Assembly (NCBI GenBank): GCA_902792635.1
Contig: CADBAG010000018.1
Span: 3,379 to 67,378, forward strand
DNA from: an uncultured Prevotellaceae bacterium
Lineage (GTDB): Bacteria; Bacteroidota; Bacteroidia; Bacteroidales; Bacteroidaceae
Direction of reading: 5' to 3'
DNA length: 64,000 nt
Below the pieces are notes generated by a model that worked only from the letters and a program-made list of their open reading frames with translations, searched no databases and had not been told where the DNA came from. Positions within the stretch are counted from its first letter, which is position 1. Each line of letters opens with the position of its first letter. Position numbers and translations under genes: made by a program. This document shows, one piece after another, positions 1 through 6,410 of this stretch.

Positions 1-65
1 ACATCGTTGATGAAGTAATCGATTACCTTAAGGCTCATAATCCATCATTTATTACCAGCAAATGA
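1..65 (+). CDS. 3' end of a small ORF, probably DUF3791-like (partial, window edge)
   Basis: Frame from base 3 reads IVDEVIDYLKAHNPSFITSK*. Its TGA (63-65) overlaps the ATG of the next gene (ATGA). The DEV motif resembles the C-terminus of the 550..774 protein. Confidence 0.5.
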   Translation, partial: IVDEVIDYLKAHNPSFITSK

Positions 66-553
66 AAGTCTATCACGGATCTACAGAGAAAATAACGTCT
101 CCTCTTGTCAATGTAGGCAGAAAGAACTTGGATTTTGGACAAGGATTCTATGTCACCAATCTGAAGCAACAAGCAATATCATGGGCTACACGGCCCGCCA
201 ATCAAGGAGAAAAGAAATACCTCAATATCTACGAGTTAGACATAGAGGATATCCATCAATCAAATTTTCGAATTCTCCAATTTAGCAAGTATGGAAGAGA
301 ATGGCTTGACTTTGTCGTAGCTAACAGAAAAGGGCAAGGACTTTGGAAGAAATATGATGTGGTAGAAGGCGGCATTGCCAACGATAGAGTCTTCAATACG
401 GTAGAACTCTACGCCGCCGATCTGATAACTGCAGAAGAAGCTCTTCAGCGTCTTAGTTATCACAAGCCCAACAATCAGATCTGTATTATCAATCAAGAAA
501 TAATTGAGCGATATCTTCACTTTATTGAATCCGTAAAAATTGAGGACAAATGA
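62..553 (+). CDS. DUF3990-family protein, ADP-ribosyltransferase-like fold
   Basis: N-terminal YHGS and DFGQGFY motifs, then QAISWA and YDVVEGGIAND, typical of DUF3990. ATGA overlaps at both ends. Confidence 0.8.
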   Translation: MKVYHGSTEKITSPLVNVGRKNLDFGQGFYVTNLKQQAISWATRPANQGEKKYLNIYELDIEDIHQSNFRILQFSKYGREWLDFVVANRKGQGLWKKYDVVEGGIANDRVFNTVELYAADLITAEEALQRLSYHKPNNQICIINQEIIERYLHFIESVKIEDK

Positions 554-774
554 TAAAAGATAACCCATTGATAAATAAGATACTCCTGCAGATGAAGTTT
601 GCAAGGATCATCATTATCTTGTCAAGACGTTTGAATATATCTCAGGCCAAGGCATTACATCTCTTCTACTCCACGAAAGTCTATCAGTATATGTGTAACC
701 TACAGTTTCACCTCCACAATATGAGCGATGACTACTGTGCTGACGAAGTGATGTTAGAACTGGAAAATGCATAA
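550..774 (+). CDS. DUF3791-family small protein
   Basis: 74 aa with LQMKFARII, ALHLFYS and LHNMSDDYCADEV. Coupled to DUF3990 by an ATGA overlap. Confidence 0.7.
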   Translation: MIKDNPLINKILLQMKFARIIIILSRRLNISQAKALHLFYSTKVYQYMCNLQFHLHNMSDDYCADEVMLELENA

Positions 775-885
775 GGTATTGGCTTCGCCAAGAATCAAAC
801 AAATCAATTCAAATCTTTCAGCAGTTGATAGCCCAACAACTCAAGAATATCCAAGGAATAAAAATTGAAGATTGGATAGATAGGA

Positions 886-2034
886 ATGACTAACATTTTG
901 CGTCTAATGGAAAACCAAAACAATATAGCTTCTGAAAGCACAACTCAGAAAAACGACAAGGTTAACAGTTCAAATAGTCATAAGATAAATGTTGACCTTG
1001 TCGCCCTCTTCCTCCTCATTACCCACAAGTGGAAATTTATTGCCATCACATTACTTGTCTGGGCAATATTTGGCATATGGTATGCTTTTCAGCAACCCAA
1101 AGAGTACAGGTCTACGGTCATGCTCGCGCCAGAGACGACAAGCAATAACCTGGCCAGTAAGATATCGTCTATCACATCCATGGTAGGACTCTTTGACGAG
1201 GCCAACCCCACAGGAGACGCCATCTACCCGGAGATCTATCCGGACATGATGTCTTCCAATGACTTTCTCGTCAAGTTGCTTCCTGTCAAGGTGAAGACAC
1301 TGGACAACAAAGTAAACACCAACTTCTACGACTATCAGAAGAACAAGACCAAGAAGACTTTCTTCATGAAAGTGGGAGGAGGAATACAGCACTTTTTCGC
1401 CTCACTCTCTAAGAAAGATGAGGTTCAGCCGCGCGTAGACTCCCTCCATCCTGATCCCCATCATCTGACAAAAATAGAGGATGGTATCGTAAACAGTATG
1501 AGAAAGGACTTCACTTGCCAGGTGGACAAGAAGACGAATGTCATCACCATCAGTGCACAGACGGAAGATCCACTGGTGTCGACCATTATGGCGAATGCCA
1601 TCAAAGATGAACTGCAGAAGTTCATCACCAAATATAAGACGGAGAAGTCGCGCAATGATGTTAAATATATGAGTGAGATCAACCGTAAGGCCAAGCTCGA
1701 CTATTCGAGAGCCAGACAAAAATATGCAGCATATTGTGATGCCAATACGGATGTCACACTCGAATCGGTAAAATCGAAGCAAGAGGATCTGGAGAATGAC
1801 ATGCAGTTGAAATACAATATCTACACGCAGACCATGCAGCAGCTTCAAATGTCAATGGCCACCCTTCAGGACAACACCCCCGCCTTTACGACCATCCAGT
1901 CGGCTTCAGTTCCTTTGAAGCACTGCAACACTCCAAAGATTTTCATCCTCATTACCTTCTTGATCATCGGTTCGCTTATTGACCTTTTGATTATAGCTAT
2001 AAGATACCGTAAGAACATCATACAGATTGCATAG
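886..2034 (+). CDS. wzz: Wzz-type polysaccharide chain-length determinant
   Basis: Two TM segments flank a large coiled-coil periplasmic region, with a Pro-rich motif before the C-terminal TM (ASVPLKHCNTPK). Confidence 0.85.
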   Translation: MTNILRLMENQNNIASESTTQKNDKVNSSNSHKINVDLVALFLLITHKWKFIAITLLVWAIFGIWYAFQQPKEYRSTVMLAPETTSNNLASKISSITSMVGLFDEANPTGDAIYPEIYPDMMSSNDFLVKLLPVKVKTLDNKVNTNFYDYQKNKTKKTFFMKVGGGIQHFFASLSKKDEVQPRVDSLHPDPHHLTKIEDGIVNSMRKDFTCQVDKKTNVITISAQTEDPLVSTIMANAIKDELQKFITKYKTEKSRNDVKYMSEINRKAKLDYSRARQKYAAYCDANTDVTLESVKSKQEDLENDMQLKYNIYTQTMQQLQMSMATLQDNTPAFTTIQSASVPLKHCNTPKIFILITFLIIGSLIDLLIIAIRYRKNIIQIA

Positions 2035-2058
2035 GTTCCCGGATAACACTATGAATAT

Positions 2059-2994
2059 ATGAAGTGGACACAGCTTATCTGCCGATACAAGATCCTCCTC
2101 ATCAGTTCTTTGGCTATTGCAATCGTTGGCAGCACCGTTGTCTCGGTATCCATTCCCAAGTCTTATTGCTCCATCAAAAAGATATCCATCAATGCGAGCG
2201 AAGATAAACTGGAGAAGGCTACCAACAAGCTGAAGCTTCTCTTCCAGAATCCTACTATAGAGCCGAGCAATGTGACCACAGAGCCCAACGTTATCAATGA
2301 GCTTTTAAAGTCGCCCAAACTCTTCCGGCTGATGGGAGAAGCGTATGTCAAGACCTCTGACAACAAAAGGCTCAAGTTGAAAGATTATCTGCTTTTTAGT
2401 CGTGAGCCTTGGTGGAGCCGGTTCTTCAACAGTCAAGATGAAGAAAACCGGCTGGAGCGCTGTATGATGACGGAGGTGGATCTAAAAACGGGAATCATCA
2501 GTATTAAAGGTATGGCTCAGGATCCCTTGGTTGCCTATGAGATTACCGAGATAGCCTCAGCCTCCTTACGGGCTATACTTCAGGCATACACGAAGCATAT
2601 TGCGGTTATCAATACGAACAACATGCGGAAGCAATGCATCAGCAGCAAGAAGAAATATGACCAGGCCATGAAGGCCTATGCCAAATATGTGGACAGCAAC
2701 ACTTCTCCCACTTTAATGGAAGAGCTGAGTATCATTGACAGTCTTCAGAAGAATGTAGACAATGCATTGGAAGAATACAACAAGGCTAACCTGCAGTACC
2801 ATCTGGCTGCAATGAAAGAGCAAAGGCATCAGATCAATTTCATCTCTCTCAATGACGGGAATATTGCCAAGAGCCCGGAGCATCCCAGAACGTTCATCAA
2901 CCTGCTCATCTGGTTGTTTTATGCGTTGTTATTCGACTTCTGGACTATATCCCTCCACAACAAGTTAAGCAGCAGAATTCATGGCAAACAATAG
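2059..2994 (+). CDS. Second, divergent Wzz-like protein
   Basis: Same topology as the upstream gene (N-terminal TM, coiled coil, PEHPR plus C-terminal TM). Shared segments such as VDLKTGIISI vs VDKKTNVITI. Confidence 0.7.
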   Translation: MKWTQLICRYKILLISSLAIAIVGSTVVSVSIPKSYCSIKKISINASEDKLEKATNKLKLLFQNPTIEPSNVTTEPNVINELLKSPKLFRLMGEAYVKTSDNKRLKLKDYLLFSREPWWSRFFNSQDEENRLERCMMTEVDLKTGIISIKGMAQDPLVAYEITEIASASLRAILQAYTKHIAVINTNNMRKQCISSKKKYDQAMKAYAKYVDSNTSPTLMEELSIIDSLQKNVDNALEEYNKANLQYHLAAMKEQRHQINFISLNDGNIAKSPEHPRTFINLLIWLFYALLFDFWTISLHNKLSSRIHGKQ

Positions 2995-4300
2995 AAGCCA
3001 ACTCTTAAAGAAAAACATTCTCTTTTCCTTTGTTATCAAAGGATGGGCTGGCATTGTTCAGATACTGCTGGTGCCGATTACCATCCATTGCCTGGGCAAC
3101 TATATCAATGGCATCTGGATGGTTATCAGTTCTGTTCTTATATGGATCGACTCTCTTGACATCGGACTTGGCAATGGACTGAGAAACAAGCTCTCTGAAC
3201 GTATAGCACTCAGAGACTCACGCGGTGCAAAGGAATATGTTTCCACGACTTTCTTTACACTGATCGGAATCATCATTCCCGCAATAGTTCTCATTCTATT
3301 AGCTTGTACGAATATCGACTTATACAAACTGCTAAACGTAGACCCACGCATCATCCCCAATCTCACGGCGGTGATCTGTCTTTCTGTCGTACTCGTCGGA
3401 AACACTTTCATCTTTAAGTTTTTAGGAAACGTTTACCTCGCCTTACAGTTACCTGCTGTCAATAACGCGTTGGTGACCTTAGGCCAGACGGTAACGTTGC
3501 TGGCAGTTTTCATTCAGCAGGTCTTCCATATCCACTCGCTGACATGGGTAGCAATAGCCTATACCGGAGGTCCTCTGCTCACTTATCTGATAGCATATCC
3601 GGTCACCTTTCATTGGAAATATAAGGAGCTCTCACCTTCGTGGAGATTCTTCAAAAAGAACAAGATAAAAGAACTTTTCTCTCTTGGCATCAAGTTCTTT
3701 GTGCTGCAGATTGCCGGCATTGTGCTCTTTGCATCAACAAATATCTTGATTTCCAGACTTTTCTCTCCCGAGTTGGTCACTCCTTACCAGGTGACCTACC
3801 GCTACTATTCGTTTATCGTTATGCTCTTCACCATCATTGCCATTCCATTCTGGAGTGCTACCACTGATGCCTATGCGAAGCATGATGTCAAGTGGATACG
3901 ATCCTCGGTAAGGAAACTCAACCTCATTGTCCTGTCCATGTTGCTGATCATCATTGTGATGACGCTCGTTTCACCTTTTGTTTACAATATCTGGGTAGGA
4001 TCGGGAGTGAAGACCAACATGATGTTATCCAGCATCATGGGGGCTTATATATTTGTGATTGTCTTCAGCCTTAGCTATTCGTATATTCTCAATGGCATAG
4101 GTGCGCTCAACCTTCAATTGATCGCAACGGTTATAGCGGCGCTTCTCTATTTGCCTTTAGCCTGGCTGCTTGCCCAAAGATTAGGTATCAACGGAATAGC
4201 TTTGGCACTTGTCATCGTGAATATCCCGGGGGCTATTCTCAATCGGATACAGTACAAGAAGATCATCTCGGGCAATGCCTCGGCATTCTGGACCAAATAA
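2981..4300 (+). CDS. wzx: Wzx flippase (MATE/MOP family)
   Basis: About 12 hydrophobic segments, a DIGLGNGLRN motif and polysaccharide-locus context. Confidence 0.85.
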   Translation: MANNRSQLLKKNILFSFVIKGWAGIVQILLVPITIHCLGNYINGIWMVISSVLIWIDSLDIGLGNGLRNKLSERIALRDSRGAKEYVSTTFFTLIGIIIPAIVLILLACTNIDLYKLLNVDPRIIPNLTAVICLSVVLVGNTFIFKFLGNVYLALQLPAVNNALVTLGQTVTLLAVFIQQVFHIHSLTWVAIAYTGGPLLTYLIAYPVTFHWKYKELSPSWRFFKKNKIKELFSLGIKFFVLQIAGIVLFASTNILISRLFSPELVTPYQVTYRYYSFIVMLFTIIAIPFWSATTDAYAKHDVKWIRSSVRKLNLIVLSMLLIIIVMTLVSPFVYNIWVGSGVKTNMMLSSIMGAYIFVIVFSLSYSYILNGIGALNLQLIATVIAALLYLPLAWLLAQRLGINGIALALVIVNIPGAILNRIQYKKIISGNASAFWTK

Positions 4301-4336
4301 TGATCCAGACAAAATGAATAATCGTAAACGCTAACG

Positions 4337-5548
4337 ATGGGTATAACGCTTATCATTATATTAACGGCATTTCTTGTCCTATTCTATTTTTTTCGGATAG
4401 GCGATGCTTTCTCTCCATGGTTCATCACTACAGCTATCTGGCTGGTGATGATACTGCTTCTCAATGCGGGAGATACTGGTTTGTATCCTCTACAGAGCCG
4501 GTTCTATATCTGTACTTTCTTATGGGTACCGATACTCTCTGCCACAGCCATACTCACTTATTACGCTACCCCCGCCTCCAGCAAAGCCAGCAAAGAAGAG
4601 ACACACATCAATCTCGCTTGGCTGAACTTTTTCTTTGCCCTTTCCCTTGTCTTCACGCCGATCTATGTTTTCCGTATCATCAAGACGGTTACAATGTTCG
4701 GTACTGAGGATCTGCTGTCAAACCTCCGAGTATTAGCCGATGCCGGTCAGGAAGACGCCATAGGTACACTCCTGAAATATATCAGTGCCATCAACCAGGC
4801 GTTGTTCATTGTTTGTATCTGGTTCTATAAACAGGTCGGGAAGACGAGAATGACGATCATTACCCTTGCCAACCTGATGTGCGCCTTTGCTATCATGGAG
4901 AAAGGCTCCTTATTCTTCCTCGGGTTAATTGCCATGTTTGTGTTATACGAGAAGAATGTCATCAAACTGAGAACTATCGCCCTCTGTGGCATAGGTATCA
5001 TCATTCTCTTCTACGGCATCAATGTTGCAAGAACGACATCTGACAAACAGCAGGACAGCAATCTCTTCGATTTTATCGCCATGTACATTTTGTCACCTCC
5101 TGTTGCCTTCGAACAAGTACAACAAAAGGTGACTGAACAATTTGGCTCCCGAACCTTTGCCTTCTTTTATGCTTTCGTGACTAAATTGGGAATAGCCAAC
5201 TATACCATTGAGCCTAAGCTCCAGCCCTTTGTGTTCGTACCCGTTTCGACAAACGTCTATACGGTCTACCAACCTTTCTTCCAGGACTTTGGCTATAAAG
5301 GTGTAGCATTCTTTGCATCTGTTTACGGAGTGTTCACCGGATGGGTGTACAGAAAGTTCAAGAATGGCGGGGCTATTTTTAAATGCCTCTATGCTTATAT
5401 TGCAGAGATATTGGTTCTCCAGTTCTTTCAGGAAAACCTGATCCTAAGTTTGTCGACTCTGTTCCAATACTTGTTCGTCATCATCTTAACGCTTCAGGAC
5501 AAGTACAAGCTACTGATCCATCAAACGAGAATCAGTCCATCAAAATAG
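4337..5548 (+). CDS. wzy: Wzy O-antigen/repeat-unit polymerase
   Basis: Polytopic membrane protein with a large loop and TNVYTVYQPFFQDFG motif, directly after wzx. Confidence 0.8.
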   Translation: MGITLIIILTAFLVLFYFFRIGDAFSPWFITTAIWLVMILLLNAGDTGLYPLQSRFYICTFLWVPILSATAILTYYATPASSKASKEETHINLAWLNFFFALSLVFTPIYVFRIIKTVTMFGTEDLLSNLRVLADAGQEDAIGTLLKYISAINQALFIVCIWFYKQVGKTRMTIITLANLMCAFAIMEKGSLFFLGLIAMFVLYEKNVIKLRTIALCGIGIIILFYGINVARTTSDKQQDSNLFDFIAMYILSPPVAFEQVQQKVTEQFGSRTFAFFYAFVTKLGIANYTIEPKLQPFVFVPVSTNVYTVYQPFFQDFGYKGVAFFASVYGVFTGWVYRKFKNGGAIFKCLYAYIAEILVLQFFQENLILSLSTLFQYLFVIILTLQDKYKLLIHQTRISPSK

Positions 5549-5555
5549 TGGTGAT

Positions 5556-6410
5556 ATGAACAAAGACATAGCCCTTGTAATCGTTATTCTCCAGCCGAGC
5601 GCTGAGGAACTCGATCAGATTAAAAGGCTTTCTACAGCATACGCAGGGGTTGTCGTGGACAACAGCTCCAAGCCAATAACCGACGATGACATTGGCTCCC
5701 TTCACTATATGTATAATGGCAACAAAGACGGCATTGCCGGAGCCCAGACTCTTGCGGTCAGCTATCTGTTGGAAAAGAAGATAGCTGACTATGTAGTGTT
5801 CGTTGACCAAGATAGCAGTATCAATCTTGATTACCCAGCATCCATCTGCAGAGAATATCAATCCATTGCCAAGAAATTCCCATTGGCTATCCTTGGACCT
5901 ACAGTATTGCACAAGGATGACGGAGAAGAATATAAATCTGTTGTACATAAAGACAAACTTTTAGACCATGGCTTCATTCCCCGACGGGATGTTATATCCT
6001 CAGGTTCATGCATCAAACTATCCTTGTTTAATGGCACGCTGAAGATCGACAAAGCCTTGTTTATCGACTATGTCGATTTTGATTTGTGCTGGCAAGCTGA
6101 AAGCAAGGGGCTTGTCTGCGGGATAACAAGCAAAATAAAGATTAGACACAAAGTCGGACAGAGAGAATTGTCGTTAGGGAAATATAAGGTCATTATATCC
6201 AACCCCAAAAGGTATTTCTTCCAATACCGGAATTATCTGTGGCTGGCTAAAAGAAGATATGTGCCATTCCAATGGAAAGTCGCCTCTGGCATAAAATTAA
6301 TTCTAAGATTCTTTTATTTTCCTTTATTATTAAAAGATGGTCCTAGAATTTGGATAAACATGGCTAAAGGAATCTTCGCTGGACTCAATTGCAAAATGAA
6401 AATAAGATGA
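5556..6410 (+). CDS. GT2 glycosyltransferase, rhamnosyltransferase-like
   Basis: VVVDNS, GIAGAQ, DQDS, ISSGS and LFIDYVDFD motifs. Confidence 0.8.
   Translation: MNKDIALVIVILQPSAEELDQIKRLSTAYAGVVVDNSSKPITDDDIGSLHYMYNGNKDGIAGAQTLAVSYLLEKKIADYVVFVDQDSSINLDYPASICREYQSIAKKFPLAILGPTVLHKDDGEEYKSVVHKDKLLDHGFIPRRDVISSGSCIKLSLFNGTLKIDKALFIDYVDFDLCWQAESKGLVCGITSKIKIRHKVGQRELSLGKYKVIISNPKRYFFQYRNYLWLAKRRYVPFQWKVASGIKLILRFFYFPLLLKDGPRIWINMAKGIFAGLNCKMKIR

Follow-up and report, generated by a model that had tools for sequence, protein, structure and literature searches.

The window analysed here is a 64,000-nucleotide stretch of one contig (L002) in the 3.16 Mb assembly of an uncultured Prevotellaceae bacterium, and its position 1 corresponds to contig base 3379. 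Three short co-oriented genes, designated A, B and C, occupy the first 774 positions, and the following features were delineated within and immediately beyond them:

1..65, + strand: 3′ end of gene A, encoding a DUF3791 protein; the full gene (L002:3204-3443, 79 aa) starts 174 bases 5′ of the window
62..65, + strand: ATGA overlap between the stop of A (TGA, 63-65) and the start of B, read directly from the sequence
62..553, + strand: gene B, encoding a predicted DUF3990 / Tox-ART-HYD2-type ART-fold protein of 163 aa, the presumed toxin or enzyme
550..553, + strand: ATGA overlap between the stop of B and the start of C, also read from the sequence
550..774, + strand: gene C, encoding a diverged DUF3791 paralogue of 74 aa
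886..2034, + strand: wzz, chain-length determinant (Pfam Wzz, E 3.3e-8), the downstream border of the insertion site and outside the cassette

An earlier reading of the sequence alone had described three ORFs chained by ATGA overlaps at the head of a polysaccharide locus, the first of them cut by the window edge. The overlaps at 62-65 and 550-553 are plainly present, and the upstream contig completes the truncated ORF as the 79-residue gene A. The position has to be revised, as the cassette is internal to the locus, with gene order wza-A-B-C-wzz on a single strand. The gene 5′ of A encodes an 866-aa Wza-type exporter with Poly_export and SLBB domains (Pfam), and 3′ of C the Wzz gene is followed by a second Wzz-like gene and then by a MatE/Polysacc_synt flippase-like gene.

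Protein B was assigned to Pfam DUF3990 (PF13151) over the entire profile (positions 1-152 of 152; E 4.4e-48, 163.2 bits against a cut-off of 32.2), and its first 57 residues, the H..Y half, gave an additional weak match to ART-PolyVal in Pfam. Protein A belongs to DUF3791 (PF12668; E 6.5e-21, 74.5 bits against a cut-off of 25). Protein C scored under the curated cut-off of 25 for the same family (E 7.5e-4, 19.9 bits). Comparison by hhalign of profiles built from 30 upstream (A) and 34 downstream (C) partners gave a probability of 90.6% (E 1.3e-6), indicating that A and C are old, diverged paralogues. PDB sequence searches with B, A and the B profile yielded nothing useful, the only match being a spurious one to a PDE5 GAF domain.

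The three genes matched, in order, the PADLOC models for PDC-M13 (A, E 9e-26; B, E 7e-57; C, E 3e-17), an assignment that denotes model matches of three adjacent co-oriented genes. Among PADLOC defence families, B matched solely PDC-M13, PDC-M10 and PDC-M42 at E up to 1. PDC-M13 (Payne et al. 2024, bioRxiv 10.1101/2024.01.29.577857) is the same family in the same gene order, with no structural difference from the present cassette, and the related candidate PDC-M10 is a two-gene version. PDC candidates, PDC-M13 included, owe their nomination to ‘guilt by embedding’ in loci for restriction-modification, BREX or DISARM, and are untried (Payne et al. 2024, bioRxiv 10.1101/2024.01.29.577857), whereas the copy described here is embedded in a capsule locus. 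A rumen survey contains 3,324 PDC-M13 calls (PMC13356809), and DUF3990 has already been placed in the Pfam ART clan (PMC7955679). A cassette catalogued as PDC-M13, in the Pfam ART clan and by a Tox-ART-HYD2 signature is not a new kind of system, and this copy adds a clean example of insertion into a capsule operon and nothing further that is special. What is added here is the empty-site evidence at the capsule locus, the full set of pairwise fusions and the absence of a conserved catalytic Glu. The literature searched yielded no experiment, phage challenge included, on any member of the DUF3990/DUF3791 cassettes.

Partner genes were surveyed at 40 related loci from the same taxonomic family. 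The complete A-B-C architecture was found at 28 loci, B-C at 6, A-B at 2 and B alone at 4, and a C-type gene lies 3′ of B at 34 of the 40. Among the 28 A-B-C loci, a 4-base A/B overlap recurs in 22 and a 4-base B/C overlap in 17, with most of the other B/C pairs within 7 bases. The prevalence of the full architecture, together with these recurrent overlaps, argues for a coupling of the genes beyond chance. The partners also occur as natural fusions: a 149-aa protein on pMMCAT plasmids carries a C-type and then an A-type domain and overlaps a DUF3990 gene, P0220 joins A to B, B is fused to C in seven representative clusters, and the ESM Atlas holds a 109-member DUF3791-DUF3990 fusion cluster. 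Since fusions exist in all pairings (C-A, A-B and B-C), we argue for a single A·B·C complex in which each enzyme is paired with two distinct DUF3791 domains. The earlier suggestion that the small helical DUF3791 proteins are partners of DUF3990 is upheld by conserved order, overlaps and fusions, which mark them as dedicated to it.

The AlphaFold model of protein A (pLDDT 96.2) is a small all-helical bundle. H53 never varies across 36 homologues, and Y49 is conserved in at least 90% of them. In a structural search with this model, the convincing fold relatives were other DUF3791 proteins only, and no DNA-binding or HTH-like fold matched above noise. In some lineages the DUF3791 module carries a DNA-binding domain typical of antitoxins, as a 59-member ESM Atlas cluster combines DUF3791 with Xre-HTH, the usual antitoxin architecture.

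Protein B, as modelled by AlphaFold (pLDDT 94.8, 59-sequence alignment), is predicted to have an ADP-ribosyltransferase (ART) fold. An exhaustive structural search with the model returned 36 solved chains with Z >= 5, and the matches listed belong nearly all to the ART superfamily. ParT ranked highest (Z 9.4), followed by the Xre-RES toxin (Z 8.5), the SAIP catalytic domain (Z 8.3), MbcT (Z 8.1) and diphtheria toxin (Z 7.7), with tankyrases, PARPs and exotoxin A at Z about 7; RhsP2, NatT, Arr, Tpt1 and DarT scored lower. Foldseek agreed weakly, with a RES toxin in first place (probability 0.92), and yielded nothing informative against Swiss-Prot models. The ART proteins anticipated for 62..553 were therefore found by the structural search, led by ParT, and weakly by Foldseek.

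The best of these matches come from toxin-antitoxin systems. The toxins of ParST, Xre-RES and MbcTA are small cytoplasmic NAD+-using ART-fold proteins with a small neutralising partner encoded alongside, and their likeness to B lies in the fold (Z 9.4, 8.5 and 8.1). They differ in motif class, R-E-S as opposed to the H-Y class of B, and in having a single Xre/DUF2384 antitoxin where B is flanked by two DUF3791 proteins. Pfam gave no RES domain in B at E up to 0.1, and the resemblance to the Xre-RES/ParST family is structural only. A second comparison is provided by type VI secretion Rhs effectors, in which DUF3990 forms the C-terminal domain (Serratia Rhs5 and Enterobacter RhsA; PMC4524185, PMC10763514). 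In these effectors it is delivered as a killing domain, whereas cassette B has neither an Rhs or PAAR carrier nor a secretion signal. A role for B as a secreted toxin was considered and rejected on sequence inspection, which revealed no signal peptide and no carrier domain.

Residue conservation was assessed in an alignment of 310 DUF3990 family members. In the strand-1 motif, H5 is conserved in 99%, G6 in 92% and S/T7 in 95% of sequences. The other conserved positions are D24 (100%), G26 (99%), G28 (98%), F29 (100%), Y30 (99%), T32 (96%), Q37 (96%), W81 (100%), R89 (99%), D99 (98%), G103 (99%), D108 (98%) and Q139 (99%). The YHGS and GQGFY motifs reported for the middle ORF lie at B residues 4-7 and 26-30, and H5-G6-S7 and G26-x-G28-F29-Y30 sit on strands 2-7 and 29-32 of the model. 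Conservation of 92-100% across the 310 sequences agrees with the interpretation of HGS and GxGxY as a PARP/diphtheria-toxin-like NAD-pocket signature, an interpretation that is already in the literature. For Tox-ART-HYD2, Zhang et al. (2012; PMC3482391) gave the signature ‘H, D, GFY, W, R’, to which H5, D24, G28-F29-Y30, W81 and R89 of B correspond, all conserved at 98-100%.

The Tox-ART-HYD2 clade has been linked by the Aravind group to a new class of toxin-antitoxin systems (PMC3482391, PMC5512222), and its catalytic triad is given as H of strand 1, Y of strand 2 and D of strand 5 (Iyer et al. 2017, PMC5512222). Two differences from the published settings were evident. B is a stand-alone cytoplasmic protein with partners, not the tip of a secreted polymorphic toxin, and, in contrast to ART-PolyVal, it does not form part of a larger polyvalent protein from a phage or plasmid.

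The catalytic Glu of an H-Y-E triad, which begins the later core strand, was sought in the same alignment, and no position in the 310 sequences holds a conserved Glu. The name ‘ADP-ribosylating’ consequently derives from the fold and not from a complete triad, and classical ADP-ribosyl transfer by B is not assured. Of the sequence-only proposal that DUF3990 is an ADP-ribosylating enzyme, the ART fold and the H/Y pocket motifs stand, while the family conserves no catalytic Glu at any position.

Candidates for the third catalytic residue, an Asp of strand 5 in the published Tox-ART-HYD2 scheme, are D99 (98%), D108 (98%) and Q139 (99%). The C-terminus of the model runs strand, helix, strand, as in diphtheria toxin. 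By this order Q139 may lie where the Glu is normally found (E148 of diphtheria toxin, E988 of PARP1), a place that the published assignment gives to an Asp, and the ranges of the structural matches are compatible with both D99 and Q139 as the third residue. Alignment of the B family with four ART-PolyVal sequences by hhalign reached a probability of 46%, with an unreliable C-terminal alignment. Among the 310 sequences, the two without H5 have also lost D108 and Q139 and retain D99, and D99 alone is lost in four otherwise intact sequences.

Few unexplained small operons of gut and rumen Bacteroidales are as common as the DUF3990/DUF3791 cassettes. Of 200 genomes sampled from the same taxonomic family, 101, spread over 22 of 27 genera, carried the DUF3990 family at 1-6 copies, and the best identity to B among 24 sampled species of the genus was 54%. 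Homologues were found in 85 plasmid records and on 5 virome contigs, and in one record the plasmid copy lies beside HipBA. Small, adjacent, coupled genes with a patchy and mobile distribution, the pattern of type II toxin-antitoxin systems, are therefore what was found. The pMMCAT plasmids (~98 kb, in many Bacteroides and Parabacteroides species) carry the pair formed by the C-A fusion and DUF3990 in an accessory patch (L106, NZ_CP072219.1, 64159-74635) that also contains an IS4 transposase, a phosphoribosyltransferase + SLOG protein pair, a HipBA system and a DNA methylase.

We also asked what surrounds related cassettes. The 131 nearest neighbours from 36 loci comprise 161 Pfam families, none of which occurs in more than 3 neighbours, and the 25 commonest of these families include neither Wza nor Wzz. 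Distant members follow KduI or UPF0102, occupy the YceG-Omp28 interval, or separate YbeY from a zinc-ribbon gene. Type I restriction-modification genes flanked 2 of the 36 loci, and a few MADS- or AriA-like matches were present among the 131 neighbours.

At the capsule locus itself, 19 congeners with an orthologous wza (58-74% identity) all have no cassette downstream of this gene. In 8 of the 19, wzz is the next recognised gene after wza, at a distance of 9-320 bases in 7 and about 740 bases in one. Metagenomic relatives at 92% identity retain the wza-ABC-wzz position with different downstream glycan genes, among them different glycosyltransferase and Wzy genes, and one congener (G006) probably has a cassette in the same wza-wzz position. 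The GC content steps from 55-60% in wza (L002:364-2964) to 36-41% in the cassette, and over the cassette and downstream glycan genes together (window 1-6000) it is 36-46%; the step fits a conserved exporter gene placed before a horizontally exchanged variable region. No target-site duplication was found at the cassette, and repeats of 12-15 bases, seen where wza ends and again in the 3′ ends of A and C, are accounted for by a shared D-E-V protein motif. Taken together, the empty sites, unrelated neighbours, plasmid copies and GC break argue that the wza-wzz location is an accident of insertion and has no part in capsule synthesis. Adjacency to surface-glycan genes had been taken to fit a defence role, and this argument fails on the empty site in the 19 congeners and the lack of recurrent neighbours elsewhere.

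With moderate confidence, we interpret the cassette as a self-contained, horizontally acquired PDC-M13 / Tox-ART-HYD2 module of the toxin-antitoxin or abortive-infection type. According to this model, B would be a cytoplasmic ART-fold enzyme with an intact nicotinamide pocket formed by H5-G-S, G26-x-G-F-Y30, Q37-A38 and an aromatic residue at 41. A and C, translated in step with B, would most likely bind it jointly as A·B·C and keep it inactive. A trigger, either phage infection or loss of the partners, would then allow B to use NAD+ to modify or deplete an essential target, and growth would stop. We infer each of these properties, namely the toxicity of B, its neutralisation by A and C, the use of NAD+, the target and any anti-phage effect.

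Several observations point in this direction. The best fold matches of B are the toxins ParT, Xre-RES and MbcT, which supports a toxin reading, and the service of DUF3990 as an Rhs killing domain supports a toxic potential. Patchy presence, plasmid copies, varied neighbours and empty sites suggest the behaviour of a selfish, mobile module. Other observations count against toxin-antitoxin function: A has no DNA-binding fold, unlike most type II antitoxins, and a classical labile antitoxin is not usually fused covalently to its enzyme. The occurrence of B alone at 4 of 40 loci argues against strong toxicity, unless these copies are inactive or their partners unrecognised, and with type I restriction-modification at only 2 of 36 loci, the association with defence genes is weak in this sample. 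Toxin-antitoxin or defence is nevertheless the best available reading.

The same fusions can be accommodated differently if A and C are not antitoxins but indispensable subunits that target or activate a three-part modifying enzyme, one that is harmless to its own cell and acts, for example, on phage or plasmid molecules or on a host regulator. Fusions in all three pairings imply a stable complex and not a labile inhibitor, two distinct DUF3791 paralogues have been retained, some loci carry B alone, and the related ART-PolyVal domains have been proposed to modify host proteins for mobile elements (PMC5512222). We nonetheless judge this arrangement unlikely, as the nearest structural relatives of B are toxin-antitoxin toxins, DUF3990 serves as a killing domain in Rhs proteins, the DUF3791 + Xre-HTH fusions resemble antitoxins, and the spread of the cassette, which extends to plasmids and there to a site next to HipBA, resembles that of an addiction module.

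A more speculative possibility, to which we give little credence, is an obligate three-part machine in which a Glu-less ART, with Gln139 at the Glu position and D108 and R89 nearby, is held by two DUF3791 clamps. Instead of classical protein ADP-ribosylation, such a machine might attack a phosphate-bearing acceptor (a nucleic-acid end or nucleotide) or phosphorolyse NAD+. If this were true, it would mean new chemistry for an abortive-infection module carried by about half of Prevotellaceae-type genomes.

B might also be a non-catalytic or non-transferase ART-fold protein, such as an NAD+/ADP-ribose sensor, an NAD+ glycohydrolase or an MbcT-like phosphorylase. In favour of this are the lack of a conserved Glu and the possible placement, by strand order, of Gln139 (99%) where diphtheria toxin has E148 and PARP1 has E988. 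The NAD+ phosphorylase MbcT and the RES NADases rank among the top fold matches, and the joint loss of Q139 and D108 with H5 in two sequences that keep D99 points the same way. Against this, Glu-less ARTs with activity exist, Arr and PARP10 being examples, near-total conservation of about 15 pocket residues argues for catalysis, and the clade has been published as an active H-Y-D triad (PMC5512222). On balance, a B protein that is not a transferase seems quite improbable.

A role in the polysaccharide locus, for instance in the control of capsule export or the protection of a glycan used as phage receptor, is highly improbable: the cassette lies between wza and wzz on the same strand, keeps that position in the 92%-identical relatives and probably in G006, and is contiguous with both genes in RNA-library contigs, but the site is empty in 19 congeners with orthologous wza (wzz being the next recognised gene in 8), other members lie at unrelated sites (KduI, YceG/Omp28, YbeY/zinc-ribbon, UPF0102) or on plasmids, Wza and Wzz fall outside the 25 commonest neighbour families, and the GC break is sharp.

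Thousands of genes would gain an annotation from one experiment on any copy, which would also show if two paralogous partners and a Glu-less ART fold make up a toxin-antitoxin pair, a defence system or something different.

Expression signals were sought around the cassette. A scan for sigma-70 promoters and terminators, using a model that is not applicable to Bacteroidota, found nothing; the 240-base spacer 5′ of A lacks the Bacteroidetes -7 motif TAnnTTTG in its strict form; and Rfam gave no real RNA family, its matches being chance similarities to snoRNAs. Contigs from bovine rumen RNA libraries, which may contain DNA, span wza-A-B-C-wzz unbroken at ~99% identity. They are compatible with read-through transcription from wza and do not constitute proof of it.

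Directly after the wza stop, at L002:2971-3003 and thus some 400 bases 5′ of the window, a perfect 10-bp stem (ATAGGGAGCT / AGCTCCCTAT) encloses a 13-base loop. This hairpin may be a terminator. Two further short palindromes are present in the 240-base spacer 5′ of gene A. Downstream of the cassette, the tandem Wzz-like genes (window 886-2994) encode 382 and 311 aa, the second with a weak Pfam match (E 0.025). Two proteins are encoded at window positions 4337-6410, one of 403 aa that crosses the membrane several times and is Wzy-like by position, the other of 284 aa, and neither matched Pfam at E up to 0.001. At the start of the contig (L002:58-380), overlapping ORFs in multiple frames contain repeated peptide strings, which suggests a short tandem or inverted repeat array.
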